Source of the DNA: a virus
Taxonomy: Duplodnaviria > Heunggongvirae > Uroviricota > Caudoviricetes
Length of the DNA: 41,117 nucleotides
IMG/VR virus record: IMGVR_UViG_2690316285_000010
Direction: 5' to 3' (one strand)
Shown here: piece by piece, positions 5,128 through 41,117 of the stretch
Layout of the letters: each line of letters opens with the position of its first letter
How positions within the stretch are numbered: the first letter of the stretch is position 1
Made by a program: the position numbers and the translations under genes
The notes under the pieces: model-generated
The model's database searches: none
What the model was told of the DNA's origin: nothing
Seen by the model: the letters and a program-made list of their open reading frames with translations, nothing else

Positions 5128-5176
5128 TCGTGAAGCCCCAGCGTTACAAGACCACCATGCCCCCAGCGTTCCATGA

Positions 5177-5862: not shown

Positions 5863-5876
5863 CGAGGTGTCATTTT

Positions 5877-6215: not shown

Positions 6216-6225
6216 CAGGTGCTTT

Positions 6226-6513: not shown

Positions 6514-6524
6514 AGGGCGTTGTG

Positions 6525-6767: not shown

Positions 6768-6877
6768 GTATATTTATTTCATGGCTTGTTCTGATTATTT
6801 CGGTGGTCTGCGCCATTGGGATTATGCGAATTATTAATTCAGTAAAAAAGATTGAACGCTTTTTCACTGAAGAATAA
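6764..6877 (+). CDS. possible small hydrophobic protein (37 aa)
   Basis: ATG at 6764 overlapping the previous stop; translation MSIFISWLVLIISVVCAIGIMRIINSVKKIERFFTEE is one transmembrane helix. Too short for the ORF track. Confidence 0.3.
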   Translation: MSIFISWLVLIISVVCAIGIMRIINSVKKIERFFTEE

Positions 6878-6963
6878 CCGCGCAAATAAGACCCCAGGTT
6901 AAATAAGAAAATGTGAAAACAATCCGCATTCGCGGAGGTATTCGCACACGCCAAGGAGGCGTA

Positions 6964-7167
6964 ATGGCAATTAAGCATTTTCCTGTCGTTCGTTTCACCT
7001 CCAGAGGACGTGAATACGAAGTTGACGAACGCCTGATTACCACAATCGACAAACACCGTTCAGAAAAGGATGCACATCATATCTATCTCACTGACGGCAC
7101 TTACTTCTGCGCCACCAACGTGGTGCAGGTGAATCTTATCAGACAGGTACAGGAGTCACGCAGATGA
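6964..7167 (+). CDS. hypothetical early-region protein
   Basis: ATG at 6964 preceded by AGGAGG; ORF track lists the longer 6913-7167. Confidence 0.45.
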   Translation: MAIKHFPVVRFTSRGREYEVDERLITTIDKHRSEKDAHHIYLTDGTYFCATNVVQVNLIRQVQESRR

Positions 7168-7409
7168 CCATTCTGGACTACATCGCTGCCAATCCGGGTT
7201 GTAGCAGTGGAGAAATCGCCGCAGCACTGAATACACCAACCACAACCATTAATGCGGAGCTACGCCGTCTCTGGCGCAGCGGTTTAGTCACAAGAAAAGA
7301 GCGCAAAACAGGCGGTCGCTTTTCTTATCAGGTAAACCTGATGCCGTTTGGGTGTAGCAACCCACTAACCCAGATGTTCAACCAGCTACTGAGGGAAATC
7401 AGAGCATGA
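7164..7409 (+). CDS. putative winged-helix DNA-binding protein
   Basis: 81-aa ORF; central segment (SSGEIAAALNTPTTTINAELRRLWRSGLV) looks like an HTH. Start overlaps the previous stop. Confidence 0.4.
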   Translation: MTILDYIAANPGCSSGEIAAALNTPTTTINAELRRLWRSGLVTRKERKTGGRFSYQVNLMPFGCSNPLTQMFNQLLREIRA

Positions 7410-7550
7410 GCACCTCCAACTGCCGGAAACCACGTCGGGCTTCAGCAGCTCATCCGGCAGCAAAACAAACTCCATTAATTCCTGTTCCGGGCCTTTCCTG
7501 CACCTTGCGGCGGGAGGCCTTCGCACATCTGTAACAAGAGGATTGCCGCA

Positions 7551-7916
7551 ATGATTCTCGCCAACGACTTTCTTGAATACCTGCTCAACACAGAGCGTGA
7601 TCTTGCCGCTCGCGTGCGTGATCGTTATGACATGTACCTGAAATCCCTGCCTGTACCGCAGCTCGCTGACGGAAAGATTGTTATTGATGGTCGCTACATG
7701 ATTGACAGCCACGAGGGAAATTACAGGCTTTACCGCATTGAAGGTGGCACCCCGTCCGTTATTGGCATTTACCAGCGCCCATCCTCTGCAATCGTCGATG
7801 TGATTGCCGACAGCATCCGCATCACACATCGCCATGCCGACACAGAAGACACCGTGCTGGAAATTCAGCGGCTGGCTACAGTCTGCCGCGACACCCTGAA
7901 TGGCATGACGAAGTAA
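7551..7916 (+). CDS. hypothetical protein preceding replication gene A
   Basis: ORF track; position is that of the small ORFs upstream of A in P2-like phages. Confidence 0.45.
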   Translation: MILANDFLEYLLNTERDLAARVRDRYDMYLKSLPVPQLADGKIVIDGRYMIDSHEGNYRLYRIEGGTPSVIGIYQRPSSAIVDVIADSIRITHRHADTEDTVLEIQRLATVCRDTLNGMTK

Positions 7917-7922
7917 ATCACT

Positions 7923-10745: not shown

Positions 10746-10790
10746 AGCGCGCACAAAACAGGCAAAAACGGGATTTCAGAATCCCGTAAA
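10693..10790. promoter_or_regulatory. two 25-bp palindromic sites upstream of parM-like gene (candidate parC/operator)
   Basis: AAACGGGActcacgaaTCCCGTAAA at 10693-10717 (inside the 3' end of A) and AAACGGGAtttcagaaTCCCGTAAA at 10766-10790, 73 bp apart; second is 32 bp upstream of the parM-like start. Confidence 0.45.
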
Positions 10791-10821
10791 CGATTAATTA
10801 ATCAACATAAGGAAAAGCGAC

Positions 10822-11781
10822 ATGAAAATTTGTATCGACGACGGCTCCACCAACATCAAGCTGGCATGGACTGAGAACGGCGAACGCCGCAACGCCATCA
10901 GCCCGAACAGCTTCAAGTCGGAATGGTCTGCGCCGTTCGGTGGCATGCAGCCCGCGAACTACATGCTTGATGGCGTGCGCTATGGTTTTGATCCGGTCAG
11001 CGATCGCTTTGTCCAGACAACCGACACGCAATACCAGTACAGCGATGTAAATGTCATTGCCATTCATCACGCGCTGGTCAAATCAGGCATCACGCCACAG
11101 GAGGTGGATGTGGTTGTCACCCTGCCACTGAGCGAGTATTTCGACACAAACGCACAGCCGGACATGGCCAACATCAACCGCAAAAAAGCGAACGTTATGC
11201 GCCCGGTGGAGTACCAGAACGGCGAAGCATTCACTATCCGTAACGTGCGGGTTATGCCTGAATCCATTCCGGCTGGCTTTAAGGCACTGGCTGACATGAG
11301 TCCGTTTGAATCCCTGCTGATTGTGGATTTGGGCGGAACCACGCTGGATGTGGCAAAGGTTCAGGGGCAACTGGCAGGTATCAGCCAGGTGTTTTGCGAT
11401 CCACACGTAGGCGTTTCTCTGATGGCCGATGCCGTACTGTCGGTGATGGCCACTAACGGTATGCGCACCAGTCACCACATCGCCAATACCATTATCGAAC
11501 ATCGCCATGATGAAGCCTGGCTGCGCCAGCACATCCACAATGACGCGCATTACGCCAGCCTGATGGCGGTTATTCGTGAAAAGGAAGAAACACTGAAACA
11601 ACGCGTGATCCGCGCGCTGGCGGGTTTTTCGGGTTACGGGCGGGTGATGGTTGTCGGTGGAGGGGCGGAGATTGTGGCACCCGCTATCCGCGAAGCCTGC
11701 GGAGTTAATGCGACTTTCATCGCGGACGGGGTGCCACAGTTTGCTCTGGTTAATGGGCTGTACGCAATGGACAAGGAGTAA
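10822..11781 (+). CDS. ParM/StbA-like actin-family partition ATPase
   Basis: N-terminus MKICIDDGSTNIKLAW and internal IVDLGGTTLDV, VMVVGGGAE motifs closely follow plasmid R1 ParM (MLVFIDDGSTNIKLQW ...) as remembered; similarity runs full length. Confidence 0.8.
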   Translation: MKICIDDGSTNIKLAWTENGERRNAISPNSFKSEWSAPFGGMQPANYMLDGVRYGFDPVSDRFVQTTDTQYQYSDVNVIAIHHALVKSGITPQEVDVVVTLPLSEYFDTNAQPDMANINRKKANVMRPVEYQNGEAFTIRNVRVMPESIPAGFKALADMSPFESLLIVDLGGTTLDVAKVQGQLAGISQVFCDPHVGVSLMADAVLSVMATNGMRTSHHIANTIIEHRHDEAWLRQHIHNDAHYASLMAVIREKEETLKQRVIRALAGFSGYGRVMVVGGGAEIVAPAIREACGVNATFIADGVPQFALVNGLYAMDKE

Positions 11782-11785
11782 ACCA

Positions 11786-12097
11786 ATGACGACACCAACC
11801 AGACGGATAAGTTTCTATCTGAAGCCTGCGGCCGTCAAGAACGAAAGCGAAGCATGCGCCTGGCTGGGCAGCCTTACACCAGAAGCCCGCAAAAGCGGCC
11901 AACGCGTGGCTTTTCTGGCCGGGCTGGCACTTCTGAAAATGAATCCAGCAGAGGCTTACCGACTGGCTGCATGGGCTGACGATGAGGCGTTATCGGTGAC
12001 ACAAACCAGGACAGAACGCCCCGTGCCACAGCCAGTACCAACCGCACAGATAACCAGTCAGATAGCAGGGAATATCCGGGCATTATTTCCTGAATGA
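11786..12097 (+). CDS. ParR-like partition adaptor/repressor
   Basis: ATG 4 nt after the parM-like stop; N-terminal region (ISFYLKPAAV ... AFLAGLALL ... IRALFP) resembles R1 ParR. ORF-track form 11651-12097 would overlap parM and is rejected. Confidence 0.6.
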   Translation: MTTPTRRISFYLKPAAVKNESEACAWLGSLTPEARKSGQRVAFLAGLALLKMNPAEAYRLAAWADDEALSVTQTRTERPVPQPVPTAQITSQIAGNIRALFPE

Positions 12098-12157
12098 CGA
12101 ATTTGACGGCTTTTAATTTTATCGGGGTGCACTGTCGCCCCGCACGAGGAAAACACG

Positions 12158-12682
12158 ATGAAAAAATACGAATACATGCTAATGAAAGAAGCACTGCGGG
12201 CTGGTCTGGCTCCCTGTCCTGTATCCGTAGAAGCTGTTGTTGGGAACACGATTTTCCGAACGCTGCGAAATCGCGTATCCGTGAAGATGGTTCACCAACC
12301 ACCCAAATCTACCAGCATGATCTATCTGCCGCTGCCCGAGGCTATCAAACTTATGCGTTCGCTGAAATTTGCGATTTGGATGCAGACACAAATCAACAAA
12401 GCGGTGCAAAACACCTTCGTTAAGAGACTAATACCGGAGCTTGCTGCCAGATGTGCAAAATGTACCAGACCCGCACTTCAATTTGATCTGTCATTGATTC
12501 AACAAGCTACGGAGGCAGAACTGTACCGCCTGTCACCTATCCGTGATGCTCACACGGAAGCATCAGAAATGTTCCGGCTCATGTTTCAATTTAATTTTGC
12601 CGTTCGACGCACACGCGTTCAGGTCAATCGCATGATGCAGGAGCAGGAAGAGTTAACACAGTACAAAGGGGGCAGCCAGTGA
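12158..12682 (+). CDS. hypothetical protein (174 aa), cargo between A and cos
   Basis: ORF track; GAGGA RBS; no motif recognised. Confidence 0.5.
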   Translation: MKKYEYMLMKEALRAGLAPCPVSVEAVVGNTIFRTLRNRVSVKMVHQPPKSTSMIYLPLPEAIKLMRSLKFAIWMQTQINKAVQNTFVKRLIPELAARCAKCTRPALQFDLSLIQQATEAELYRLSPIRDAHTEASEMFRLMFQFNFAVRRTRVQVNRMMQEQEELTQYKGGSQ

Positions 12683-12918
12683 GTAATTCAGCACGACTAC
12701 AGCTTGGTTTTTCACCGCTATCAAAAACCATCGTATTGGCAAAAATGCGTGACTTAGGAGACGGAACAAAACGCCGCGTAGGAAATGATCGCGGTCGCGA
12801 TGTAACCAACGAGGCCGCTCAACTCGTTTGGCATCTAGTCATGGCAGAAGGCGGTGAAATTAATTGGGAGCTGGATGATGGTTCTCGTATGATTTTGAGG
12901 GCCGAGAAGAGTAAATAG
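12679..12918 (+). CDS. hypothetical protein (79 aa)
   Basis: ORF track; start overlaps the previous stop, suggesting translational coupling. Confidence 0.45.
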   Translation: MSNSARLQLGFSPLSKTIVLAKMRDLGDGTKRRVGNDRGRDVTNEAAQLVWHLVMAEGGEINWELDDGSRMILRAEKSK

Positions 12919-12932
12919 CTCAAGGGGGATTA

Positions 12933-13118
12933 ATGCTAAATGATGATGAAGAAGAGCTGCTTATGCAGGAATGGTCGCTCGGTGATTATGATAATGGTGA
13001 AAATGGGTGCCCGCATTGTGGCCGTTATCGTTTATGTATCTGCCAGAATGGAAAACACAGATGTGAAAAGTGCAATTGGTCTCCGGAACTTAATGACTAC
13101 GTGCCGATCGAGTGGTAG
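12933..13118 (+). CDS. hypothetical Cys-rich small protein (61 aa)
   Basis: ORF track; CPHCG...CxC...CEKC cysteines suggest a zinc-binding fold. Does not resemble Ogr. Confidence 0.4.
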   Translation: MLNDDEEELLMQEWSLGDYDNGENGCPHCGRYRLCICQNGKHRCEKCNWSPELNDYVPIEW

Positions 13119-13139
13119 AGGTAAGTCACACTAGGTGTT

Positions 13140-13600
13140 TTTTAGTTGATTTTATAAATGCACAATAGTGCACAAATTTGCACAATTTTTTTGAACGACT
13201 TTTTGCCCTTCCGGCCCGCGTGGCGGCTGGATCCGTCAAGGATCCGTGCATGCACAAAAAAACGCGTTTTTTCTGCGCGCAGGTGACGGGGGAACAGCCC
13301 GCGTTTCAGGGGGTAAATAGCATTCCCTGAACGATGTCGCAGAGATACAACAGAATGGCTGTATTTCTCACGCTGAGCGTGAAAAAGACGTGAGGGCTTT
13401 TGATTTGATGGGGTGAAAGGTAAGGCCGTCAAAATCGCACTGAGACGGCGAGAATATGCAGTCAACGAGGTGGGATTGCGTAAGAGTCTGACTGTCGATG
13501 ATGGCAATCAGCAGGAAAGCGTCGTGAAATTATCTGACTGATACAGGAGCTGGAGAGTCGGGGCATAAATTTTTTATGCCCCGGCGAAGCAGCAGACAAG
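13140..13600. other. non-coding region at the expected position of cos and the packaging site
   Basis: 460 bp without ORFs just beyond the portal gene stop, where cos lies in P2. Contains phased TGCACAA repeats and a GCGTGGCGG stretch at about 13217-13226 that partly resembles the P2/186 cohesive end. Confidence 0.4.
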
Positions 13601-13609
13601 CGAAGCGCG

Positions 13610-14656
13610 TCAGGATGTGGGCTGGGTGTCTAACAGTGCGTAAGGGTTAAAGCGGATCACCTCTTCGCCAAGCCAGTCATTGATGTGCTTCATGGCCTCC
13701 ATGACGGGCATCAGCTCGTTAATTGCGTAAACCCGCGCGGCCTTCTCCACATCACCAAACGCACTTTTTTCGCCCGGCATCGCCCCCATCAGTTGCGGCG
13801 GAACGCGGTGCGCAGCCAGCACATCATCACGGGATGCCGCCTTAACATTCATGAACTCATCCTTTGCGGTGATCTGCTGGAACGGCAAAATTTGCACCCC
13901 CTCTTTGCCCCCGTTGGGCGCATGAATGAGCACGTTTTTAAACGCACCACCACCACGTGCCCCCTGTAGCGTTTCTTTCAGGGAGTCCATGCTTTCGCGG
14001 TTTACCTGCGCTGCACCGATGTAGATGATGCACCCGGCGTGGGATCCGTTGTCGTAGTACAGTTTTCTGAACATGTCCGCCGAATGAGAAAGGCTGGCCG
14101 AGAGTAATGCGCCAAGATATTCCGGCATGCCGTAGATTTCCTGGTTAATATCCGGATTCATCAGGTGGCACACTTTGCCAGGACGAAACTGAAACGCATC
14201 CTTGCCATCCTGCACATACCACCATGATTCAAGATCGCTTCCGCGTCGCATGTATTTCGCCAGGGCGTGCCGTAATTTAAGCGGTTCGCCGAGCATATTG
14301 CTCCGAAGCTCAAGGAATGCGTTACCGAACACAAACCAGTCCAGCGCCAGCGCCGAGAAATCCTGCCGGGAAAGCAGCGGGTGCGGAATATAGCAGCCGA
14401 GCAATACATTGCGCTTAAAGTAAAGCGCAGACTGATGCCAGGACGTTTGCCGGGCAGCTCTTGCCAGACCGTACCAGTCCACCGGGGTTTCATACCACCG
14501 CCCGTTATCAGCACAGTACATATTGTCCAGCAGGTCATGCCCGGTCAGGCGGTAAGGACCATCAAATGTGAATGCACTGAGCGACGATTCTTTCCTGAGC
14601 GCATCAGCGAGATCAATGCGTGAACTCATGCGCACTTTTTTATTTTTTCTGCTCAT
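13610..14656 (-). CDS. Q: portal protein (P2 gpQ-like)
   Basis: 348-aa ORF in the P2 Q position (leftward, next to cos, followed by P); size and sequence consistent with P2 Q. Confidence 0.85.
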   Translation of the reverse strand: MSRKNKKVRMSSRIDLADALRKESSLSAFTFDGPYRLTGHDLLDNMYCADNGRWYETPVDWYGLARAARQTSWHQSALYFKRNVLLGCYIPHPLLSRQDFSALALDWFVFGNAFLELRSNMLGEPLKLRHALAKYMRRGSDLESWWYVQDGKDAFQFRPGKVCHLMNPDINQEIYGMPEYLGALLSASLSHSADMFRKLYYDNGSHAGCIIYIGAAQVNRESMDSLKETLQGARGGGAFKNVLIHAPNGGKEGVQILPFQQITAKDEFMNVKAASRDDVLAAHRVPPQLMGAMPGEKSAFGDVEKAARVYAINELMPVMEAMKHINDWLGEEVIRFNPYALLDTQPTS

Positions 14657-16470
14657 CAGAACTCCATAACCGTGAAACGCTCGTTTTCTCCTTCGCCGCC
14701 AATCGGTTCGTTAATGACAGCAAGCATGGTTGCCCACGCAAGGTCGCCGTGGCTGATCCCCCTCGCGCGGTCCGTTTCGTAAGTGATAAAACCGCCCGGT
14801 GTTTTCACCTTACGCACGGCGTTAAAGGCCGCAACCAGCTCGCGTTCGGCGCGATCGTATTCCCACCGCCCGGCACGCATTATTTGCAGCATTTTCAGTA
14901 CCAGCGACCGTTTTGATGACAGCGTGAAGGTGTAAGGGATGGCGGCGGGAAAAAACCGTTTCACTATCTGATAGACGGCATCCCCGTGCCCGCCCGTCGC
15001 ATCAATGCCGATGTGTTCCACGTTGTAGCGATACGTGAACTCTTCAATAACTCTGGCCTGCTCTTCAAATTCCAGCCCCTGAACGCGTCGCGTCTCCACC
15101 GTTCTGAAACGACCACCAGGAACAGCCGGAGGAACCACCACGGACACAGCGCCGCTGTCGCCGTTACCACTGCTGCCGTTTGCGTCATACCCAATCCATA
15201 CCGGACGATTCCCCATCGGGCGGGGGGCAAAGGGTTTCCAGTCTTTCCAGTCGTCGTATCCGTCAACACCGCAGCCAATCAGGATATTCAGGTTAAATGC
15301 CGATTCCCCTTCGCGGACAAACTCACACATATAGAGATTGCGGAACTCGTCTTCGGTGTTTTCATCACGAATTTCATCAATATCGGTGTGTTTCCAGCCG
15401 TGATTAACCACATCTTCCAGCGTGACAATTTGCCGCCACGTCCGGTCAGGGCAGATAAGCCCGTTATGCAGCGTTTTCCAGTCCACAGAAAAACGCTGGC
15501 GTTTATGCGCGGCCTTTTTCTCGTTCCAGCGGTCGCCGTTCCAGTAGGCGTATGCCTCGTGCGTTTCGGTGGATGGCGTGGAGAAGCAGGTGCGCCGCAG
15601 TCCGCTGAGGGTTGCCATAGCGCCAGCCACCTTGCGCAGTTCAGCAAAGCGACTGACCCAGAAAAATTCATCAAAATAAAAATTGCCCGTGTAAGATTGC
15701 GCCGTCGCAGCAGAAGTGCCGAGAAAATGCATCTCTGCGCCGTTGGAGAGGATGATTTTATCGCCCCCTTTCAGCTCCACATCGACTTCAGCCGCGGCCT
15801 TCTGAATAATGCTTTTAAACTGGAACGCCTGACGACGCGACGCAGACAAAAAAATCTGGTTACGCTGGTAAGGTTGTGCCACATCGTCACGCAGCGCCAT
15901 CAGCAGTGCTTCCTGTGCAAAATACCAGGTCGCCCCAATCTGTCGGGATTTCAGGATCATCCTGTTACGTATCCCGGCTTCNNNNNNNNNNNNNNNNNNN
16001 NCCGGCTTCCCTGCAAAGCGTCAGGGAGTCAAACCAGCCCCGCTGATGCCACTCCAGCCTGCTGATGATTTTTTCCCGCAGTGCGGCAATCTGTTCCGGC
16101 GTGAAATGATTTTTGAGTTTTTTCGCCCGGCCTTTCTTTCCTGTGGCCGTCGCATCCGGCTGGCCATCATGCAGTTTTTTAAGCTGCCGGGNNNNNNNNN
16201 NNNNNNNNNNNNNNNNNGCTGCCGGGTCAGCAGGTCTATTTCCTTAAAGTCACCACCTGTTTTATTCTGTTTTTCAGTAAGCTGGATGAGGCGCGCATCG
16301 ATGGACTGCGTGACACGCTGCACGGGTGGCGTTTCATCCCACTGGTCGCGTTTTTTCCACGCATAAATCGTGTTCGGGTTTATTCCCATCAGACGTGATA
16401 TTTCTGCGGGCGGATAACCCTGCCAGTAAAGTTGCCGCGCACGCTGGCGCACAAAAGCGTCCTGAATCAT
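14656..16470 (-). CDS. P: terminase large subunit (P2 gpP-like), interrupted by two N-runs
   Basis: ORF 14656-15960 matches the nuclease half of P2 P, ORF 16021-16470 the N-terminus. N-runs 15982-16001 and 16192-16217 are flanked by duplicated 9-bp sequences; removing the duplication restores frame (RQ / RQLKKLHDGQPDATAT). Confidence 0.8.
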
Positions 16471-16624
16471 TGCTCCCCCTGAGTAATTACAGGAAGATTA
16501 CCCGCGCGCGAAACCGTTCTCCTTAACCCCCTGTTCTGGCCGTTTTCTTACAACAAAAGCCCTTTGTATCAGCCTGTTACGCTTTGCCATCATGACTGAA
16601 GAACCAGTCAGAGGGGCAAAAACT

Positions 16625-17461
16625 ATGGCTAATGAAAAAAAGACATCCCGCAAAAAGTTTCGCGTGGCTGTCTCCGGATCAACTGTTGATGGCCGTGAAA
16701 TCAGTCCGGTGCATCTGCGTGAAGCCGCCGAGAACTTCAACCCGGATGTTTACGCTGCCCGCGTGAACGTTGAGCACTATCTCTCGCCATGCCCGTCAAG
16801 CGAATTTTCCGCAATGGGCGATGTCACCGCACTGAGTACGGAAGACATTACGGAAGGTCCGCTGGCCGGACGTACTGCGCTGTATGCAGAAATCGAACCG
16901 ACCGAGCGCATGAAGCAGCTTGTCGCGGACGGCAAGAAAATCTATTCCAGTATCGAACTGCACCCGCAGTTCTCCGTTAACGGGCGCGCCTATCTGGTCG
17001 GGCTGGCGATGACCGACACCCCGGCAAGCCTGGGCACTGAGCGCCTGAAATTCACGGCACAGCAACGTCAGGCGGTGATGACGTTCAACAGTATCCAGGG
17101 TGAAGCACCGCTTATCTCCGAAGCCATCGAGTCTGAAATCATCGAAATGGCAGAACAACGCCAGGAAGAAGGCACCCAGTGGTTTAACCGCGTAATGGGG
17201 ATTATTGGTCGTGGCCGCAAAGCGGATGACGCCAGTTTCTCCCGTATTCAGGAAGCGGTGGAAAGCGTCGCAACGTCACAGGCCGACATTATCGACCGTT
17301 TTAATGCGCTGGAAACACGCCATCAGCAGGACAGCCAGAAAATCACTTTACTGACCACGGAGCTGACAGCACTGAAGGAAAAACTGCGCACGCAGGACGG
17401 CGATCCGCAGAACCGGTTCACCGCAACGGGCGCAGCCTCCGACCAGCTGGCTGACTTCTGA
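16625..17461 (+). CDS. O: capsid scaffolding protein (P2 gpO-like)
   Basis: Start at MANEKK aligns with the P2 O N-terminus; divergent from P as in P2. Confidence 0.85.
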   Translation: MANEKKTSRKKFRVAVSGSTVDGREISPVHLREAAENFNPDVYAARVNVEHYLSPCPSSEFSAMGDVTALSTEDITEGPLAGRTALYAEIEPTERMKQLVADGKKIYSSIELHPQFSVNGRAYLVGLAMTDTPASLGTERLKFTAQQRQAVMTFNSIQGEAPLISEAIESEIIEMAEQRQEEGTQWFNRVMGIIGRGRKADDASFSRIQEAVESVATSQADIIDRFNALETRHQQDSQKITLLTTELTALKEKLRTQDGDPQNRFTATGAASDQLADF

Positions 17462-24988: not shown

Positions 24989-26421
24989 ATGAGTACCACA
25001 ACACGAAAATTTAAAACCATTATCACCGATACGGGTGCAAAAAAATTAGCGCAGGCAACCGCGCCAGATGGGAAACCTGTCCGCCTGACACATATGGCCG
25101 TGGGTGACGGCGGCGGTACTTTACCCACGCCAGACAGTAAGCAGACCCGTCTTGTGCATGAGGTGTGGCGACATACCGTTAATCGCGTCACCCTGGACGC
25201 AACACATCAGAACCACATTATTGCGGAGCTGGTTATTCCTCCTGAAACGGGCGGATTCTGGATCCGGGAAATTGGTGTGTTTGATGAGCACGGCGATTTG
25301 ATCGCGGTAGGCAATACTGCCGAAAGTTACAAGCCAACCGTTGCCGAAGGATCCGGACGTGCACAAACATTTCGCACCATTCTGACCGTATCCAGCACTG
25401 CCACTGTGGCGCTTACCGTGGATAACACCATGGTGATGGCCACAGTGAATTACGTGGATGACAAACTGAAAGAGCATGAACAGTCACGACGTCACCCGGA
25501 CGCCTCGCTGACCGCAAAAGGCCTTGTCCAGCTCAGCAACGCCACCAACAGCACGTCTGAAACGCTGGCAGCGACACCAAAAGCCGTTAAGGCAGTAATG
25601 GATGAAACGAACAAGAAAGCCCCATTAAACAGCCCGGCACTGACCGGAACGCCAACAACACCAACTGCGCGACAGGGAACGAATAATACCCAAATCGCAA
25701 GCACGGCTTTCGTTATGGCTGCGATTGCCGCACTTGTAGACTCTTCGCCTGATGCACTGAACACACTGAACGAGCTGGCGGCGGCGCTGGGCAACGACCC
25801 GAATTTTGCGACCACCATGACTAACGCGCTTGCGGGTAAGCAACCGAAAGATGCCACNTCTCAGAGCAAAGTTGCTGCTGAATCCGCGGCAACGCGCGCC
25901 GAGACAGCAGCAAAACGGGCAGAGGATATTGCATCCGCCGTGGCGCTTGAGGATGCGAGCACGACGAAAAAGGGGATAGTACAGCTCAGCAGTGCGACCA
26001 ACAGCACTTCCGAGTCACTGGCGGCAACGCCAAAAGCGGTTAAGGCGGTAATGGGTGAAACGAACAAGAAAGCGCCCTTAAATAGTCCTGCACTGACCGG
26101 AACGCCAACAACACCAACTGCGCGACAGGGAACGAATAATACCCAAATCGCAAGCACGGCTTTCGTTATGGCTGCGATTGCCGCCCTTGTAGATTCGTCA
26201 CCTGATGCACTGAACACGCTGAACGAGCTGGCTGCGGCGCTGGGCAACGACCCGAATTTTGCGACCACCATGACTAACGCGCTTGCGGGTAAGCAACCGA
26301 AAGATGCCACTCTGACGGCGCTGGCGGGGCTTGCTACTGCGGCAGACAGGTTTCCGTATTTTACGGGGAATGATGTCGCCAGCCTGGCAACCCTGACAAA
26401 AGTCGGGCGGGATATTCTTGC
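24989..26421 (+). CDS. H: tail fibre protein, constant N-terminal part (P2 gpH-like); 3' end lost at an N-run and IS4
   Basis: N-terminus MSTTTRKFKTIITDTGAKKLA... and the QLSSATNSTSE..LAATPKAVK segments match P2 H. Reading frame ends at ...VGRDIL, then N-run 26422-26430 and the IS4 end. Confidence 0.8.
25531..26307 (+). repeat. tandem duplication of about 327 bp within the tail fibre gene
   Basis: Unit 1 about 25531-25857 and unit 2 about 25981-26307, roughly 95% identical, encoding LS.ATNSTSE.LAATPKAVKAVM.ETNKKAPLNSPALTG...AGKQPKDA twice. A single N (25858) sits at the end of unit 1. Confidence 0.7.
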
Positions 26422-26426
26422 NNNNN

Positions 26427-27852
26427 NNNNGCCAGTCAGTTAAGCAACTGACTGGCTCTTTTTCGGGGCTGTGGGGTATTTCCAGGGCCTCTCCTTTACC
26501 ACTCTCGGGAAGGCCCTTTCCCTTCTCGTCGGTAATTTCACAAGTTGTCCCATACTTGCAAGATCGCGCATCAGCTCCGGTATACGTCCCGGTGAAGCGC
26601 CCTGCAATGTCATCAGCATTCTCATCACCATTCCGCATGATTCTGAGAAACTCAGTTGATTCGGCCAGTAACCTTTCAGATGTTCCGCCATTTTAATCAT
26701 CTGATATCTCACCAGATTATAAGCCAGTAAGACACCCCACAGCTCTTGCTCCACAAGCTCCGGCTTTTTACTTCTCAGCGTCAGCCTGCTCAGTTGCATC
26801 GTCTGTTTTATCTCCCTGTATCCCAGTTCGATTTCCCAGCGATGACTGTACAGATCCGCCATTTCTCCTCCGGGGAAGCGCATGGCGTCCGTCATCGACG
26901 TCAGCAGATGGCAGACTTTTCCTTTGCGCGTCACGGTCAGCAGGCGGGCTGTCACTTCATTTCCCAGTCCCGGCCACTTTTTTCGTGCCTGCGGGCTGGT
27001 TTTCAGCTTCACCAGATGATCGCCTTTACCCAGTTTTCTGAGCTCTTCATATTGCGCTCCCTTTCTGAGAGGTATCATCCAGTGGCGGTGTTCTCCCGCC
27101 AGGCTCCAGGCATTTAACAGTCCCAGTGAGTAATAACCTTTATCCATTAACGTCAGAGTGTTATCGCCGGTTTGTTCTATAAGTTGCTCAGCAAGCTCAT
27201 TTTCGCTGTTCTTCATCGTGCCGAAGGCTGCAGCCGTCAGCAGATGGCTGGTCAGTTCCATCTGGCAGACCATTTTGACCTGCGGGTAGAGCGCCGGGTT
27301 CCCGGCATGTGTCTGGCGGGGGAAGGCTGCATCGTTCTCTGGTGTATCCGGTGTGCGCCAGAACACACCATCGATGGCCAGCAGGGTCAGGCCGCACCAG
27401 TGCGGATGCGGCGTGGCGTTATGCCAGAGCTGCGCTGTTTTCGTGAACACGCGGCGGACAGCCTCACTTCCCAGGCGCTGGCGGGCCTGAATAACGGCAC
27501 TGGGGGCAACGAAGGGGCGATTGCCCGGCAGCATGATGTCCAGGCGATTCACAATCTGGTGAAGAGGTTCTTTACGCTCAAGCGCCATGCCAACAATACA
27601 CCAGACCATCATTTCGAGGGGAAGACGGCGCTTGCGTAGCGTTACAGTACCTGATTCGGCAAGGCAACGAGAGATGAGTTCGGGGTCGAGGTAATCCCCC
27701 AGAGAAGTCAGTGGGTTACGCAGAGAATCGTAACGGGATACCAGATCAAGAGCCTGTCCAATGTGCATAAAAAAATCCGGAAACAAGTGAGCGTTTCCGG
27801 ATTCTTACACAGCCACTGGATCGGTCAACTGATCCTTAACTGATCGGCATTA
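26427..27852 (-). mobile_element. IS4 insertion sequence
   Basis: Encodes a protein matching E. coli IS4 transposase; visible terminus at 27835-27852 reads TAATGCCGATCAGTTAAG (reverse complement), the IS4 inverted repeat as I remember it. The other end runs into N-run 26422-26430, so the start coordinate is approximate. Confidence 0.85.
26440..27768 (-). CDS. insG: IS4 transposase (DDE)
   Basis: 442-aa protein from [10 protein letters not shown]... matches IS4 InsG from memory; ORF-track start at 27786 is an upstream extension. Confidence 0.9.
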
Positions 27853-31135: not shown

Positions 31136-31363
31136 NNNNNNNNNNNNNNNNNNNNNNNNNNNNNNNNNNNNNNNNNNNNNNNNNNNNNNNNNNNNNNNNN
31201 NNNNNNNNNNNNNNNNNNNNNNNNNNNNNNNNNNNNNNNNNNNNNNNNNNNNNNNNNNNNNNNNNNNNNNNNNNNNNNNNNNNNNNNNNNNNNNNNNNNN
31301 NNNNNNNNNNNNNNNNNNNNNNNNNNNNNNNNNNNNNNNNNNNNNNNNNNNNNNNNNNNNNTC

Positions 31364-31871: not shown

Positions 31872-31904
31872 CCGCTAATGGTCAGATTAGCGGTTATTTT
31901 GTTT
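31872..31904. terminator. bidirectional rho-independent terminator between U and the invertase gene
   Basis: CCGCTAAT-ggtcag-ATTAGCGG hairpin with T-tracts on both sides (TTATTTTGTTT on plus, TTTTTGTGTTA on minus). Confidence 0.6.
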
Positions 31905-32481
31905 CCTGACTCTTCTCTATTGTTCCGATTGATTCTCCTGCGGGGTGGTAACGATAAATCGTCGATATACCAATGCCGTAAATTATTGCCAGTTGTTTTC
32001 TGTCGTGCCCGTTTTTGATCAGCCTTGCTATTTGCTCATGCTGTTCTTTTGTCAGCTTCGGTCGACGTCCGCCTGTGCGCCCCCGTGCGCGTGCTGCCGC
32101 CAGTCCGGCCAGTGTACGTTCAACAATTAATTCACGTTCCATTTCAGCCAGGGCACCCATCACGTGGAAGAAAAAACGCCCCATTGGAGAAGATGTATCT
32201 ATGCTGTCGGTCAGACTGCGAAAATTAATTCCTCGCTCCCGTAGTTCCCCGACGAGAGAAATCAGATGTTTCATGCTTCGCCCGAGGCGATCCAGTTTCC
32301 AGACAACCAGCGTGTCACCTTTTTGAAGGCGCTTTAAAGCGCGTTTTAATCCCGGTCGGTCTGTCTTTGTCCCGCTTAATTTATCTTCAAATATTTGTTC
32401 ACATCCTGCACAAACAAGAGCGTTTCGTTGCAGGTCTGTATTCTGGTCATTTGTTGATACCCTTACATAGCCAATCAGCAC
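31894..32481 (-). CDS. pin: serine DNA invertase (Pin/Gin/Cin/Min family)
   Basis: [36 protein letters not shown]... is close to e14 Pin through the catalytic domain (Ser in VRVSTNDQ), C-terminal HTH diverged. Start placed at GTG 32479-32481; ORF track uses TTG at 32499. Confidence 0.88.
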   Translation of the reverse strand: MLIGYVRVSTNDQNTDLQRNALVCAGCEQIFEDKLSGTKTDRPGLKRALKRLQKGDTLVVWKLDRLGRSMKHLISLVGELRERGINFRSLTDSIDTSSPMGRFFFHVMGALAEMERELIVERTLAGLAAARARGRTGGRRPKLTKEQHEQIARLIKNGHDRKQLAIIYGIGISTIYRYHPAGESIGTIEKSQETK

Positions 32482-32535
32482 GCTGAATCTCCCGTCCAAA
32501 AGCGCAAATCATGCCATGCAGGCCGGAAACGGCCA

Positions 32536-32561
32536 TTATCTAAAACCTCGGTTTACAGGAA
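32536..32561. other. invertase crossover site (gix/pix-like), site 1
   Basis: TTATCTAAAACC-TC-GGTTTACAGGAA: two 12-bp inverted half-sites around a 2-bp core, near-identical to the Mu gix site as I remember it; 55 bp from the invertase start. Confidence 0.8.
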
Positions 32562-32670
32562 ACGGTAAACAAGGCTGGTAACGCCGTGCAAAAAAATGGC
32601 GATACGTTGTCCGGTGGACTTACTTTTGAAAACGACTCAATCCTTGCCTGGATTCGAAANNNNNNNNNNN

Positions 32671-33260
32671 TCTTCTATTGTACGACGGTGTTCGTCAAAA
32701 GCTAATTGTCGCCAGGGACTTTCGAATGAGTATTTGCTGAGCCAGCGTCGGTGTGCAGGGCCCCAATCTGCTCGCCCGACATAATGGACCCCATGAACCA
32801 GAAGAAACGATTTCAGACGTTGCCTTGCATGCCGTAAATCATCGCGGGCAGATGCCCATGCCCGGGCCAAATCCCGGAATGCCTCATCTTCAATGCCGGG
32901 TACGTAGACAGCAGAAAGATCTCCTGCACGCAGTGAACGCACAAGTCTGATGGCATCACGGCGATCGGTTTTAACCCGCTCCCCCGGTTTTTTCGGGATA
33001 AGTGAGGGGGCGCAGACCATGCAGTCAAAACCGGATTTCACCAGCCGACGATAAAGTCCATAACCACAGGGCCCCGCTTCATAAACGATACTGACCTGCG
33101 ATGACTTTGACCTGAGACGTTTACAAAGATTCTGAATATCAGTAGGTGATGTGCCAATTTTACCCATCAGTTCAACAGGTTCTGAATTGATAGCATAAGC
33201 GACAGTAATCGATTCTTTGTGAACATCTAACCCGACGTACAATGTGTTATTGTTGTTCAT
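32671..33260 (-). mobile_element. 5' part of an IS110-family (DEDD) transposase gene, cut off by N-run 32660-32670
   Basis: N-terminus MNNNNTLYVGLDVHKESITVAYA... is typical of IS110-family transposases (and related Piv-type invertases). Only about 196 codons precede the gap. Confidence 0.6.
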
Positions 33261-33386
33261 GCTGGCCTCCGTGGTGGAAATACCGGGGTGTAGCAACAGC
33301 TCACCCATGCGGCTCTGACAACGATGTTAACCCGCGTTAAATATCCCACGTTGGCCAGCATCTGTCTCACGGAAAGTCATACTGCC

Positions 33387-33656
33387 TTACATTGTGTCTG
33401 GTTCTTCCGGCCACTCAATATCAGGTGCAGTTGATGTATCAACACGGTTCAGCAACACCCGATACTTCTTCCAGGCTTCCAGCAACGAGTTTTCTTCCTC
33501 CGTTGCGATCTCCAGATCTACAGCATCCTGAAGTGGCGCAATATGCTCACTGAATTCCTGGATGTAGAACTGTGTGGTGACGGTCTTCCAGCCATTCGGC
33601 TCCTGCTGTATCGAAGCATACCAGGCTATTTCAATATCGCTATGCTGCGGCAGCAT
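33387..33656 (-). CDS. short tail-fibre-assembly-like protein (C-terminal domain only)
   Basis: 89-aa ORF ending ...[28 protein letters not shown], the conserved C-terminus of Tfa proteins; N-terminal half unlike the other Tfa copies here. Confidence 0.5.
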
Positions 33657-33712
33657 TTAACCCCTTGTAATTCATCGCCATAATTGATTTAATTCACAAA
33701 TAAAACTATAAT

Positions 33713-34381
33713 ATGGTGAAATTAATGAAAAAAAACACAGATGATGGGGCTAAAATTTACACACCACTTACCCTAAAGCTTTATGACTGGTGGGTTTTGG
33801 GAGTATCAAATCGGCTTGCATGGGGATGTCCTACAAAGGAACACCTTCTTCCACACTTTCTGGAACATTTAGGTAACAACCATCTGGATATTGGTGTTGG
33901 AACTGGGTTTTACCTTACTCACGTACCTGAGAGTAGTCTGATATCTTTAATGGATTTGAACGAAGCTAGCCTGAACGCGGCATCTACAAGGGCTGGGGAA
34001 TCAAAAATTAAACATAAAATTAGCCATGATGTTTTTGAACCTTATCCCGCGGCGTTACATGGTCAATTTGATTCCATTTCCATGTTTTACCTTCTTCACT
34101 GCCTGCCTGGAAATATATCTACAAAAAGCTGTGTAATACGCAATGCGGCGCAGGCCTTAACTGATGATGGAACTCTATACGGAGCCACAATTCTTGGCGA
34201 TGGAGTTGTGCACAATAGCTTCGGTCAAAAACTGATGCGCATTTACAATCAGAAAGGCATCTTTTCAAACACAAAAGATTCCGAAGAAGGCTTAACACAT
34301 ATACTCTCAGAGCATTTCGAGAATGTTAAAACCAAGGTTCAAGGTACTGTAGTAATGTTTTCCGCTTCAGGGAAAAAATAG
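33713..34381 (+). CDS. class I SAM-dependent methyltransferase (substrate unknown)
   Basis: 222-aa ORF with motif I LDIGVGTGF; AT-rich coding sequence; followed by a hairpin CCGCAGCACGT...ACGTGCTGCGG at 34390-34422. Confidence 0.6.
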   Translation: MVKLMKKNTDDGAKIYTPLTLKLYDWWVLGVSNRLAWGCPTKEHLLPHFLEHLGNNHLDIGVGTGFYLTHVPESSLISLMDLNEASLNAASTRAGESKIKHKISHDVFEPYPAALHGQFDSISMFYLLHCLPGNISTKSCVIRNAAQALTDDGTLYGATILGDGVVHNSFGQKLMRIYNQKGIFSNTKDSEEGLTHILSEHFENVKTKVQGTVVMFSASGKK

Positions 34382-34579
34382 CATCCAACCGCAGCACGTT
34401 CTTGCTTAAGACGTGCTGCGGCATAATCCCAATGATTACTCCCTGACAGGGTTCGTAGGCCACTCAATATCAGGTGCAGTTGATGTATCAACACGGTTCA
34501 GCAACACCCGATACTTTTTCTAGGCTTCCACCACCAGCACGACAAGATGCCGCATACAGTGACCCAGTCAGTCCAGTTT

Positions 34580-34780
34580 TCAGACAACCAGTGCGTCACC
34601 TTTTTGAAGGCGCTTTAAAGCACGTTTTAATCCAGGTCGGCCTGTCCTTGTTCCGCTTAATTTATCTTCAAATATTTGTTCATATCCTGCACAAACAAGA
34701 GCGTTTCGTTGCAGGTCTGTATTCTGGTCATTTGTTGATACCCTTACATAGCCAATCAGCACGCTGAATCTCCCGTCCAA
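34580..34780 (-). pseudogene. diverged 5' fragment of a second invertase gene (about 66 codons)
   Basis: Translates to [19 protein letters not shown]...LQKGDALVV*; differs from the intact pin at several nucleotides (C->Y, K->R, D->G, T->A), so it is not an assembly duplicate. Confidence 0.6.
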
Positions 34781-34816
34781 AAGCGCAAATCATGCCATGC
34801 AGGCCAGAAACCGCCA

Positions 34817-34832
34817 TTATCTAAAACCTCGG
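34817..34832. other. crossover site 2 (left half visible; rest in N-run)
   Basis: TTATCTAAAACCTCGG then N-run 34833-34923; sequence after the gap resumes CGGTTTACGAGAAC..., a variant right half. Confidence 0.5.
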
Positions 34833-34923
34833 NNNNNNNNNNNNNNNNNNNNNNNNNNNNNNNNNNNNNNNNNNNNNNNNNNNNNNNNNNNNNNNNNNNN
34901 NNNNNNNNNNNNNNNNNNNNNNN

Positions 34924-35897
34924 CGGTTTACGAGAACTCGGCACAAGCGGGGAGAAAATACCGTTACTCAGTACAGCGAATACCTGGACTAATCGACAAA
35001 CATTCAGCGGTGGCCTTTCTGGTGAACTATCCGGCAATGCTTCTACAGCTNNNNNNNNNNNNNNNNNNNNNNNNNNNNNNNNNNNNNNNNNNNNNNNNNN
35101 NNNNNNNNNNNNNNNNNNNNNNNNNNNNNNNNNNNNNNNNNNNNNNNNNNNNNNNNNNNNNNNNNNNNNNNNNNNNNNNNNNNNGTGCGTTTGCCTTAGG
35201 GAAAACAGGAAGCACCGTTGCGAATGATAAAGCAGTTGGATGGAACTGGAGTAGCGGAGCCTATAACGCAACTATTAGTGGTGCATCAACGTTAATTATT
35301 CATTTTTATAATTAATCCGAAACTGAGCTGCAGGACAACTTCCTTCTCCCATATAAAAATGGCGGTATTTTTTATCGTTCAGCCCGTGATGGTTATGGTT
35401 TTGAAGCCGACTGGTCCGAATTTTACACCACCAGAAAACCTTCAGCAGGAGATGTTGGTGCACTGCCGTTATCTGGTGGTCAACTGAATGGTGCACTGGG
35501 TATCGGAACATCCAGTGCTCTTGGCGGTAATTCGATTGTATTGGGTGATAATGACACGGGCTTTAAACAAAAAGGCGATGGTAATCTGGATGTTTATGCT
35601 AATAACGTCCATGTTATGCGCTTTGTCTCCGGAAGCATTCAAAGTAATAAAACCATAAATATTACGGGACGTGTTAATCCCTCGGATTACGGTAACTTTG
35701 ATTCCCGCTATGTGAGAGATGTCAGACTTGGCACACGAGTTGTTTAGACCATGAAGAAAGGCGTGATGTATGAAAAATCAGGCCATGTAATCACGGGGCT
35801 TGGTATTATCGGTGAAGTCGATGGTGATGATCCGGCAGTATTCAGACCAATACAAAAGTTAATTAACGGAACATGGTATAACGTATCGCAGGTATAA
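34924..35897 (+). pseudogene. tail fibre variable C-terminal domain (P2 H-like type), disrupted
   Basis: Encodes ...TWTNRQTFSGGLSGELSGNASTA, (gap 35051-35184), ...[21 protein letters not shown]..., ...[18 protein letters not shown]...[18 protein letters not shown]. Interrupted by a 41-bp inversion (35311-35351) and an in-frame TAG at 35745. Confidence 0.6.
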
Positions 35898-36131: not shown

Positions 36132-36142
36132 NNNNNNNNNNN

Positions 36143-36450
36143 CCGGTCGGTCTGTCTTTGTCCCGCTTAATTTATCTTCAAATATTTGTTCACATCCTGC
36201 ACAAACAAGAGCGTTTCGTTGCAGGTCTGTATTCTGGTCATTTGTTGATACCCTTACATAGCCAATCAGCACGCTGAATCTCCCGTCCAAAAGCGCAAAT
36301 CATGCCATGCAGGCCGGAAACGGCCATTATCTAAAACCTCGGTTTACAGGAAACGGTAAACAAGGCTGGTAACGCCGTGCAAAAAAATGGCGATACGTTG
36401 TCCGGTGGACTTACTTTTGAAAACGACTCAATCCTTGCCTGGATTCGAAA
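36143..36450. repeat. exact 308-bp copy of 32352-32659 (invertase 5' end plus crossover site 3 at 36327-36352)
   Basis: Base-for-base identical to 32352-32659 by eye; each copy has an N-run on one side. Confidence 0.8.
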
Positions 36451-37892: not shown

Positions 37893-37912
37893 AAATTAAG
37901 GCCCGATANNNN

Positions 37913-37938
37913 NNNNNNNNNACCTCGGTTTACAGGAA
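37913..37938. other. crossover site 4 (left 9 bp inside N-run 37909-37921)
   Basis: Visible part ACCTCGGTTTACAGGAA identical to sites 1/3, followed by the same [15 protein letters not shown] junction frame. Confidence 0.6.
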
Positions 37939-40146: not shown

Positions 40147-41117
40147 TTAAATACTCCCCGCGTTATACCACGTCCCATTAATGCAATACTGAATTGGCCT
40201 TGCCTGAGTTGTATCAATTAGTTCATCTCTGTTTGAGTTAACGGAACCGGTAACAACATAACCTGACCTGTCAGACCATCCGGGACCATTCCATGTCTGA
40301 ACAGATAACAGACCACCAAGGCGAATACCTGTAATAAACCTTGAGTTACATTCTGCCTGCGTATATGCACCAACATCTCCCGCAGAGGGTTTGCGGGTTG
40401 TGGTGTAAAACTCTGACCAGTCAGCTTCAAAGCCATAACCATCACGCGCTGAACGATAAAAAATACCGCCGTTCCTGTAATTCACGCGGAACTGTACAGC
40501 AGGGCAGCTCCCCGTATTCATATTGAAGTGGAGGATTAATGTCGATGCGCCACCAATGTTTGCGTTATAGACCCCGCTATTCCAGTTCCAGCCAACAGCT
40601 TTATCATTTCCGACAGTGCTTCCTGTTTGCCCTAAAGCAAATGCAGGTTGTTGATTTTTCGTGTTGTAGTCTCGTCGCCAGCCAGGAGCGTAAGCATCAC
40701 CATGATTAATATAAGTGAATTGAGCGTTAGTAATTCCGCCACCGCTGGACGTGCTCGGCGTGGTAACGCGTATGGTCATTGCGCCGCGAGTGCCAATAAC
40801 TTCCACCACAGCACCTGCAAGACAAATATTTCCGCAACCTGTATCTGTAATGACCTTATTATTTGCATAAGCCCATGAGCCTTTGCACATCCAGTAAGGA
40901 TGGTTAAATGCTCCCTGACTCTCCAGCCACGAAATAAATTGCGCGGTTGTCCAGACCTGACTATCGCCACCAATATTCAGCCATGAGCTATATGCGCGGC
41001 AGGCACCAATATTTTTGGTGAAGGTATCTTTCCCCGGAATATCTGCGCCGTTCTGGTTTTTCTGTAATGCGCCAGAAGCCTGATTTACCGTTTCCTGTAA
41101 ACCGAGGTATTCGATAA
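40147..41117 (-). CDS. tail fibre variable C-terminal domain, cassette C (5' end at window edge)
   Basis: Minus-strand frame open from crossover site 5 ([18 protein letters not shown]...) to ...[17 protein letters not shown]; ORF track lists 40147-40890 from an internal Met. Confidence 0.7.
41092..41117. other. crossover site 5, inverted relative to sites 1/3/4
   Basis: Plus strand TTCCTGTAAACCGAGGTATTCGATAA = reverse complement of TTATCGAATACC-TC-GGTTTACAGGAA. Confidence 0.75.

Follow-up and report, generated by a model that had tools for sequence, protein, structure and literature searches.

The 41,117-nucleotide stretch analyzed here (the window; IMG/VR virus record IMGVR_UViG_2690316285_000010) contains the right end of a lambda-like prophage. 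We consider it likely that this end is the right border of an inversion module, in which the invertase gene pin has been cut at codon 78 and joined to a tail fiber assembly gene (tfa) of the tfaD type, and that the invertible segment is still flipped in trans. The locus is best regarded as a Din-type segment that can still invert and whose remnant invertase is fused to a prophage end of the DLP12 tfaD-ybcY-tfaX type. Judging from sequence comparison, it probably works like the G segment of Mu or the P segment of e14, to both of which it is homologous, but as the client of an invertase provided in trans. In the mechanism that we propose, a 3-kb segment with two cassettes, each formed by a tail-fiber tip and a tfa gene, would invert when another prophage supplies a Gin/Pin invertase, and the crossover site with the first 300 bp of invertase-side DNA, where the enhancers of Gin/Hin-type systems lie, would keep the switch competent in cis. 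The enzyme acting in this genome could be the pin of a P2-like prophage, found at 31894-32499.

In finished genomes the gene order is J, lom, stf, tfa, an inverted tfa' with a tail-fiber tip, a recombinase fragment, a partial tfa, a methyltransferase gene on the opposite strand, a second partial tfa and finally a host gene. The latter is ompW in strains 504239 (locus L001), FDAARGOS_1077 (L010), WS1933D (L011) and E302 (L014), and potB in the ETEC strain H10407 (L002). The features of the window considered here are as follows, pin', tfa'' and tfa''' being the gene remnants:

31894-32499, minus strand: intact invertase gene of the Gin/Pin type (Pfam Resolvase positions 2-144 of 145, E 1.5e-50, and HTH_7).
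33387-33656, minus strand: tfa''', a tfaX-like 3' fragment of 89 codons (Caudo_TAP positions 75-130 of 131, E 2e-26), the final gene of the prophage, whose end lies at about 33386.
33713-34381, plus strand: intact gene for a YbcY-like, class I SAM-dependent methyltransferase (Pfam Methyltransf_12/23/25/11).
34436-34529, minus strand: tfa'', the last 30 codons and stop of a tfaD-type tail fiber assembly gene (from PhiR26_1 tfa, K-12 tfaD and Caudo_TAP positions 105-130 of 131).
34530-34762, minus strand: pin', the first 78 codons of the invertase in Gin numbering (alignment to Gin and K-12 pinE).
34530-34555, minus strand: pinE-like end of pin', codons ~70-78 (identical to K-12 pinE; also aligned with locus L005).
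34531-34538, minus strand (pin sense): Chi octamer GCTGGTGG, exactly at the pin'/tfa'' junction (motif match).
34556-34570, minus strand: 15-nt patch at the boundary of the gin-like and pinE-like parts (alignment).
34571-34762, minus strand: gin-like 5' part of pin', codons 1-64, with a GTG start at 34760-34762 (92.7% to Mu gin plus gixR).
34763-34816, minus strand: leader from the crossover site to the invertase start codon, with 2 mismatches to the intact pin, at 34806 and 34812.
34817-34832, plus strand: outer half-site and core of a crossover site, 16 of 26 bp, TTATCTAAAACCTCGG, the same 16 bp that open the sites at 32536-32561 and 36327-36352.
34924-35050, plus strand: small contig opening with the inner half-site CGGTTTACGAGAA and continuing into a tail-fiber C-terminal cassette (100% to positions 2648-2774 of L014).
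41092-41117 (window end), minus strand: second crossover site, of the stf-side type, outer half TTATCGAATACC (identical site at 11647-11672 in L001 and at 11337-11362 in L002).

The two inverted 26-bp sites that define a G, P or C segment were found in L001, at 8432-8457 (+) and 11647-11672 (-), and in L002, at 8410-8435 (+) and 11337-11362 (-), where they bound a segment of 2.9-3.2 kb; the half site of the window and the site at 41092-41117 are linked only across N runs. The crossover site that the original prediction had placed beside the invertase fragment is present, but its own full sequence is not readable, 16 of its 26 bp preceding the N run 34833-34923 in which the rest is lost; L001 and L002 have the full site at the corresponding place. 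What can be read of it in the window, the outer half and the core, is identical to the site of the intact pin. The sequence of the small contig 34924-35050 sits at the stf-side site in E302, and its link to position 34832 crosses the N run. Alternative tail-fiber C-terminal and tfa cassettes in opposite orientation, one of them in frame with the constant stf N-terminus, are found in the five finished loci L001, L002, L010, L011 and L014. An active adjacent invertase encoded in cis is lacking, only the 78-codon fragment being there. The invertible segment of the window itself is scattered over the scaffolded contigs.

Strains 504239 and WS1933D carry the prophage at the same site and their flanks differ at a single position each in 8513 bp to one side and 3857 bp to the other (2 mismatches in 12.4 kb, 99.99% identity), but the 3247 bp between the crossover sites are inverted in one with respect to the other. 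After flipping, 1.9 kb of this segment is identical and the remaining 1.2 kb differs by about 4%, indicating the replacement of a cassette. A full-length stf ORF is found in both orientations. Strains 504239 and H10407 are also opposite in orientation, and in the window the inner sequences on the two outer half-sites are swapped compared to its close relative E302, one of these links crossing an N run. The opposite orientations found in near-identical strains indicate, therefore, that inversion still happens. Counting orientations across all the carriers by two junction-plus-interior probes was uninformative, because the variability of the interior cassettes left only 17 and 14 genomes; the pairwise comparison of near-identical loci was used instead. 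The locus had been described as a fossil, and this holds for the invertase gene, which is dead, but apparently not for the locus as a whole, since the crossover site is kept together with the 5' part of the gene and the segment appears inverted between near-identical strains.

Alternatively, the segment could be locked in an inert locus and the differences in orientation could derive from replacement of the whole segment or from rare RecA recombination at the inverted repeats around the crossover sites, which are about 85 bp long, so that an inversion mediated by RecA is possible. There is no invertase in cis, cassette replacement does occur (half of the segment is 4% different between 504239 and WS1933D), and the interval from the core to the first internal polymorphism is free of markers by which the exchange could be assigned to the crossover core. 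All the same, this explanation seems unlikely to us, because so few mismatches in the flanks together with 1.9 kb identical after flipping point to a recent and clean inversion bounded by the 26-bp sites, and because these sites are perfectly conserved, stf is intact and full-length either way round and inversion in trans by prophage invertases is established (PMC12529663).

The inversion would thus be site-specific and catalyzed in trans. Such inversion across prophages has been documented for PinQ, PinR and PinE acting on e14, for PinE on the G segment of Mu and for Fin on the H segment (PMC12529663). Regarding the enhancer, that of Hin is 65 bp long and is located about 100 bp from hix (PMC3798978), and a statement in the same source, citing Kahmann et al. 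1985, places the Gin enhancer inside the invertase gene; the literature search on the position of the enhancer in gin gave nothing useful. A simple motif scan of the invertase-side DNA of pin' detected Fis-like motifs centered at ~97, ~109 and ~169 bp from the crossover core, conserved with Mu gin, and no pair of such motifs 48 bp apart. The retained 300 bp may have enhancer function.

The fragment pin' is the 5' remnant of a DNA invertase of the Gin/Pin type, cut about 40% through, at codon 78 of ~190, and it retains the codon for the catalytic Ser9. Translation of the minus strand gives 60 Pin-like residues after the GTG, ending in KGDALVV, followed by TGA, KLD, a second TGA, LGHCMRHLVVLVV, EA, TAG and then the Tfa C-terminus with its stop. 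In Pfam comparisons Resolvase positions 2-92 of 145 directly abut Caudo_TAP positions 105-130 of 131, and HTH_7 was not matched in the fusion. Neither a complete catalytic domain (the Resolvase match ends at position 92 of 145 and there are two stops) nor the C-terminal HTH_7 of an invertase gene is present. Since HTH_7 is absent and tfa sequence follows codon 78, pin' is a pseudogene remnant of the Gin/Pin/Cin/Hin family and not a member gene, and it cannot make an active recombinase because all the residues past 78 are missing, including the C-terminal DNA-binding domain. The invertase fragment had been predicted to have 66 codons; an ORF does exist at 34580-34780, but the homology does not end there and runs past two stops to 34529/34530, making 78 codons.

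Pairwise alignment with the intact pin region of the window, which had been suggested, gave 11 mismatches in 261 nt (95.8% identity) over 34572-34832, and beyond this stretch, over 34530-34571, 21 of the 42 nt are mismatched. The fragment is, as predicted, diverged from the intact pin. There are no mismatches over 34684-34805, which covers the first 26 codons and the start-proximal leader. Over the same 34572-34832 the identity to Mu gin plus gixR was 92.7%. By these alignments pin' is more than a diverged form of the intact pin, namely a chimera of gin-like and pinE-like sequence. The 15-nt patch at the boundary differs at 7 of its 15 positions from the pinE-like allele of L005, is common to L001 and L002 and is one base off, at 34563, in L014. 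Furthermore, of the 11 positions at which the fragment of the window departs from the intact pin, 7 have the intact-pin base in H10407, so that further exchange between copies of pin' and functional pin alleles can be seen.

Three in-frame stops interrupt the fusion in the window. The TGA at 34580-34582 (codon 61) is TGG in L001 and L002, the one at 34568-34570 (codon 65) is found also in these two loci, and the TAG at 34520-34522, already within tfa'', is TGG in L001, L002 and L005. Strain E302 shares both the TGA of codon 61 and the TAG, indicating that they are variants of the lineage and not read errors; in particular, the TAG is no sequencing error. A Tfa 3' remnant with this change from TGG to TAG had been noticed at 34455-34520 as 27 codons; the remnant and the change are there, but its length is 30 codons (34436-34529). 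In fact, 34450-34533 aligns to the 3' end of the other tfa fragment, 33387-33656, with 5 mismatches in 84 nt, and the extreme C-terminus and stop of tfa'', which differ from those of tfa''', extend the remnant to 34436. With the exception of the TAG, tfa'' is identical to the 3' end of the PhiR26_1 tfa from GGAAGCC to 34430 (past the stop, where the aligned stretch ends), and compared to the 3' end of K-12 tfaD there is a single difference besides the TAG. Neither tfa remnant spans the full-length Caudo_TAP domain (PF02413, ~130 positions).

The border between pin' and tfa'' lies at 34529/34530, where 26 nt identical to K-12 pinE (ATGCGGCATCTTGTCGTGCTGGTGG) are followed by tfa bases (TGGAAGCCTGGAAAAAGTATCGG). 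The pinE and tfa parents share few bases there (TGGA/GCTGG), which indicates that the join was illegitimate. The idea of a spacer of 30-40 nt of unknown origin between pin and tfa was discarded, as K-12 pinE shows that this stretch is pinE-like invertase sequence. A junction made by the invertase itself at a pseudo-crossover site was likewise discarded on inspection, GTGCTGGTGGTGGAAGCC being unlike the 26-bp site. A native tfa allele containing TGGTGGTGGAAGCC, which would provide a longer microhomology, was not found among the complete genomes with the junction probe; the partial matches starting at probe positions 22-25 correspond to ordinary tfaQ-type sequence (TTGTTGCTGGAAGCC). This 69-nt probe spanning the junction was covered (at least 80% of its length) in 536 of 5426 complete E. 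coli genomes, about 1 in 10, and the same nonsense changes are found in the finished genome of E302, so that what had been seen as the scar of an older recombination is indeed a genuine old junction.

A second version of the fusion, found in L005, has the identical junction, including the extra TGG and about 100 nt of tfa, although its pin part is e14-like throughout (86.5% identity to e14). Its fused ORF is open and codes for 107 amino acids (protein P0014). There the fusion directly adjoins potB, without methyltransferase gene, and the locus corresponds to that of H10407 with the DNA between the two direct repeats of the tfa 3' end taken out. The presence of the same junction in e14-like and gin-like versions argues for a single origin. 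The founding step would have been one pinE::tfa join, from codon 78 to the last 30 tfa codons, through a few bases of microhomology, with the gene of a DLP12-type tfaD-ybcY-tfaX prophage end as the tfa partner. The junction would then have spread among lambdoid prophages at different integration sites. In the lineage of the window, homologous exchange may have replaced the region from the crossover site to codon 64, together with the invertible segment, by a module like Mu G/gin, with the exchange point within the conserved stretch coding for GDTLVVWKLD; the nonsense mutations would have accumulated after this replacement. The ybcY cassette could have been gained or lost by recombination between the tfa repeats. 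This order of events is the one we infer, and the founding event could have been either the acquisition of the module by a tfa-ybcY-tfaX phage or a deletion in a single phage. It is plausible that the junction marks the border where an inversion module joined a prophage end of the tfaD-ybcY-tfaX type: an intact tfa-ybcY-tfaX without inversion module is found in PhiR26_1, and an intact invertase is found at the equivalent position in phage LLS.

The junction could instead be the product of a recurrent hotspot, driven by Chi or by the GCTGG microhomology and formed independently several times. A different fusion to a tfaE-type gene at GTGCTGG, overlapping the same Chi position, was seen in the draft contig L006 and would support a hotspot. 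We regard this as improbable, since the e14-like and gin-like versions share the junction to the base, with the extra TGG and some 100 nt on the tfa side, and since the joint of L006 carries an ambiguous base (N), was found in 0 of the 5426 complete genomes and may be a misassembly. With a single draft contig, an N at the joint and no complete genome, L006 is unreliable as an independent case.

The position of Chi was considered in relation to the single founding join as well. The octamer at the junction is one of only two in the 41-kb window. In both K-12 pinE and LLS fin, Chi occupies nt 225-232 of the sense strand, and genes of the gin type are without it. RecBCD spares the DNA located 5' of Chi, and the retained 5' part of pin is on the 5' side of the octamer, the orientation expected for a RecBCD product. 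The coincidence of Chi and junction (about 1 in 1000) came to attention only once the junction was mapped and is suggestive. As a tentative and rather doubtful proposal, RecBCD may have resected a downstream double-strand end as far as the Chi in pin, and the spared 3' end could have been joined to tfa by 4-5 nt of microhomology (TGGA), which would set the point of truncation; Chi sites within phage genes would then be preferred end-points for illegitimate mosaic joins. If this were true, joins stopped at Chi would leave behind tail-fiber switches that have no invertase but are competent in cis and depend on co-resident prophages. The junction Chi offers in any case a cheap and testable idea about how non-homologous joints are positioned in mosaic prophages.

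Selection could also have maintained the fusion, Pin(1-78)::Tfa(C-terminal 30), as a small functional protein that modulates inversion, for example. Some genomes do have an uninterrupted reading frame across the fusion (proteins P0010, P0013 and P0014, of 102-107 amino acids and with Resolvase and Caudo_TAP Pfam matches), but the copy of the window has three in-frame stops, the one at codon 65 being found also in 504239 and H10407, and the fragment is devoid of the dimerization helix and of the DNA-binding domain, which make such a role very improbable.

The window has 13 N runs, and the flanks of several of them overlap by 3-9 nt (for example ...cccggcttc / ccggcttcc... and ...aaacctcgg / cggtttac...). 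It is a draft scaffold of contigs joined by Ns and, therefore, adjacency across any N run is unreliable. The tfa''-pin' block sits whole in one uninterrupted contig, 32671-34832. The region 33386-34832 matched complete E. coli chromosomes with up to 99.2% identity, which excludes chance, and this 1.5-kb block is present in 409 of the 5426 complete genomes (counted when the genome held at least 80% of the query). The original prediction that the fragment is not an assembly duplicate was borne out by these 409 finished genomes and by the variant bases that recur in E302. Correcting for sequencing error does not make it equal to the intact pin either, as 11 mismatches in 261 nt remain and the variants are shared with that finished genome. 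A simple duplicate of the intact pin is also discarded by the complete divergence past 34571. Even though the 13 N runs make the window a scaffold, and the 5' region of the intact pin is indeed present redundantly a second time, at 36143-36450, it is hardly credible that the block is an artefact of assembly or scaffolding (a misassembled or error-laden duplicate of the intact pin region), given that it lies inside one contig, reaches 99.2% identity to 409 finished genomes and has both its nonsense codons in E302.

The intact pin at 31894-32499 has a different context. An arrangement of gpU, pin and crossover site was found in 619 complete genomes, and a P2-like context was seen in L009; on this comparison, it belongs to a separate P2-like prophage. 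Strain TW10828 carries both pin' and the intact pin about 1.5 Mb apart. The genome from which the window derives has both genes like TW10828, and their closeness in the window is an effect of scaffolding, the sequence being a draft interrupted by 13 N gaps. A second inversion module within one element, which had been suggested, is therefore not what the data show: the intact pin is from a P2-like prophage and was brought near by an N-joined scaffold.

Among known systems, the G segment with gin of Mu and the C segment with cin of P1 have the same layout, with a tail fiber gene, tfa, an inverted tfa' and tip', a crossover site and an invertase reading outward. The similarity to Mu is also one of sequence, since a contiguous 2.3 kb of L001, taking in the S'-U' half of the G segment, is homologous to Mu at 92.6% identity, and the tfa genes of the locus, of 528 and 534 bp, have the lengths of Mu U and U'. 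Unlike in Mu and P1, the module is located here in a lambda-like prophage of the J-lom-stf type, and the invertase is truncated at codon 78, leaving the module without an enzyme of its own. The P segment of K-12 e14, with pinE, is similar in being a tail-fiber inversion module of a defective lambdoid prophage with the invertase at the right end, and the last 26 nt of pin' are those of K-12 pinE, Chi included. The e14 segment is inverted also by the invertases of other prophages (PMC12529663). However, e14 has an intact pinE followed by mcrA and uses crossover sites of the TTCTCCCAAACC type, those of the window lineage being gix-type.

A search for an intact invertase at this position in related prophages had been proposed, and one was found, through the literature, in LLS (PQ299149). 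This viable lambdoid phage has two opposed tail-fiber genes with inverted repeats in the annotation, and the invertase is located between these and the b region/attP. The LLS invertase has Chi at the pinE position and represents the intact state of the position occupied by pin'. It differs from the locus described here in having an intact, Fin-like invertase, other tail fibers and no tfa or ybcY remnants. A tblastn search of PinE against the phage collection gave best matches mainly of the P2, Mu and P1 types and no obvious lambdoid phage with this module.

The scar is real but ordinary. Its ingredients (mosaic joints, truncated invertases and Din invertases acting in trans) are known, and RefSeq already annotates the pieces as partial genes. 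Literature searches on ybcY/tfaX and on truncated invertases in lambdoid prophages, judged mostly without full texts, gave nothing that appeared to describe the junction. As to annotation, the 'recombinase family protein' and partial 'tail fiber assembly protein' that RefSeq lists in hundreds of E. coli can be tidied up as one conserved scar whose history can be traced. More broadly, the locus is a common example (in ~10% of the complete E. coli genomes, ETEC H10407 among them) of a tail-fiber switch without its own invertase that probably depends on those of other prophages. This is relevant to predicting the host range of induced phages and to reading 'orphan' invertible segments in surveys of phase variation.

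The order found at the right end of the prophage, a tfa 3' end, an antisense methyltransferase gene and a second tfa fragment, is that of DLP12. The tfaD-ybcY-tfaX end of K-12 DLP12 and the phages PhiR26_1, 2G7b and ev243 share with the window this antisense SAM methyltransferase gene between a tfa 3' end and a second tfa 3' fragment by the prophage end. In these phages the first tfa is intact and located directly after stf, without inversion module, and in the window tfa'' is reduced to 30 codons on pin'. In DLP12 ybcY is a pseudogene, whereas the ORF of the window is intact. The gene is antisense to the phage late genes and has direct repeats of the tfa 3' end on both sides; it is annotated as a methyltransferase in L001 and L002, its counterpart is labelled YbcY in PhiR26_1, and in K-12 ybcY lies between tfaD and tfaX. 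In the annotations of L001 and L002 the fragment tfa''' appears as a partial tail fiber assembly protein, and its counterpart in K-12 DLP12 is tfaX. A scan of 33300-34832 for terminators detected none. A promoter-like site was observed at 33684-33712, ahead of the methyltransferase gene.

The invertase remnant of the fusion (34530-34762, minus strand) meets the tfa 3' remnant exactly at a Chi site (GCTGGTGG) located on the minus strand at 34531-34538. The position of this site is conserved in invertase genes of the pinE/fin type, being found at nucleotides 225-232 in both K-12 pinE and fin of phage LLS, and its orientation at the junction is such that the side that RecBCD would spare is the one that has been retained. 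Close to the junction there is a short divergent patch:

34556-34570, minus strand: 15-nt patch differing at 7 positions from the pinE-like allele of L005, a relative carrying an e14-like version of the fusion

The patch is flanked on one side by the gin-like part of the fragment and on the other by 26 nt identical to K-12 pinE, and it contains a stop codon common to all the copies examined of the long form of the scar, the one that includes the ybcY-like methyltransferase.

Other versions of the fusion were found. Comparison of L005 (1-620) with ETEC H10407 (5900-8440) showed that the former contains a short form of the scar, without the ybcY methyltransferase, in which an e14-like invertase fragment is fused to the tfa 3' end and directly adjoins potB; here the fusion ORF is open and codes for 107 amino acids. 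This form fits a history in which the two direct repeats of the tfa 3' end recombined and the methyltransferase cassette was thereby gained or lost. Another fusion, of an invertase N-terminus to a TfaE-type C-terminus, was located inside a Mu-like tail gene cluster in the draft contig L006 (1378-1686). The two parts are joined at GTGCTGG, a microhomology of 7 nt, and the joint includes an ambiguous base; this type of fusion was found in none of 5426 complete genomes and it may be a misassembly.

The window itself is a scaffolded draft with 13 N runs (among them 15982-16001, 31136-31361, 32660-32670, 34833-34923, 35051-35184, 36132-36142 and 37909-37921). The sequence at either side of several of them overlaps by 3-9 nt, and several contig breaks fall at crossover sites or within IS elements. 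The gene order across the gaps is unreliable, and so is the short distance that appears to separate the fragment from the intact pin. Its transposases include:

26443-27786, minus strand: IS4-family transposase (Nterm_IS4 and DDE_Tnp_1)
32671-33308, minus strand: IS110-family transposase, N-terminal 212 residues (Pfam DEDD_Tnp_IS110)

The first directly adjoins, and comes after, the tail-fibre gene of the P2-like prophage (24989-26443). The second is interrupted by an N run, and the element to which it belongs (32671-33308, minus strand, and 33309-33386) adjoins the end of the prophage just beyond the stop codon of the tfaX-like fragment, where complete genomes have prophage-end or host DNA.

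In the P2-like prophage to which the intact pin belongs (2655-16908 in TW10828, 28511-32561 in the window) the sheath-tube-E-tape measure-U block lies on the strand opposite to the V-W-J-I-H block and gene D. The invertase gene has gpU on one side, an adjacency found in 619 complete genomes, and the tail-fibre cassettes on the other. An exact duplicate of the 5' part of pin, the crossover site and the start of the tail-fibre cassette (32355-32659) appears at 36143-36450. This copy looks like a redundant assembly of the P2-like prophage's invertible region into contigs bounded by crossover sites, which may have come about because the sequenced culture contained the two orientations. Between the otherwise near-identical lambda-like prophages of E. 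coli 504239 and WS1933D (inverted), one cassette, made up of the tail-fibre tip and the 534-bp tfa (8572-9779 in 504239), differs by ~4% inside a flipped 3.2-kb segment, the other 1.9 kb of which is identical, a pattern of sequence divergence that points to a recent cassette replacement.
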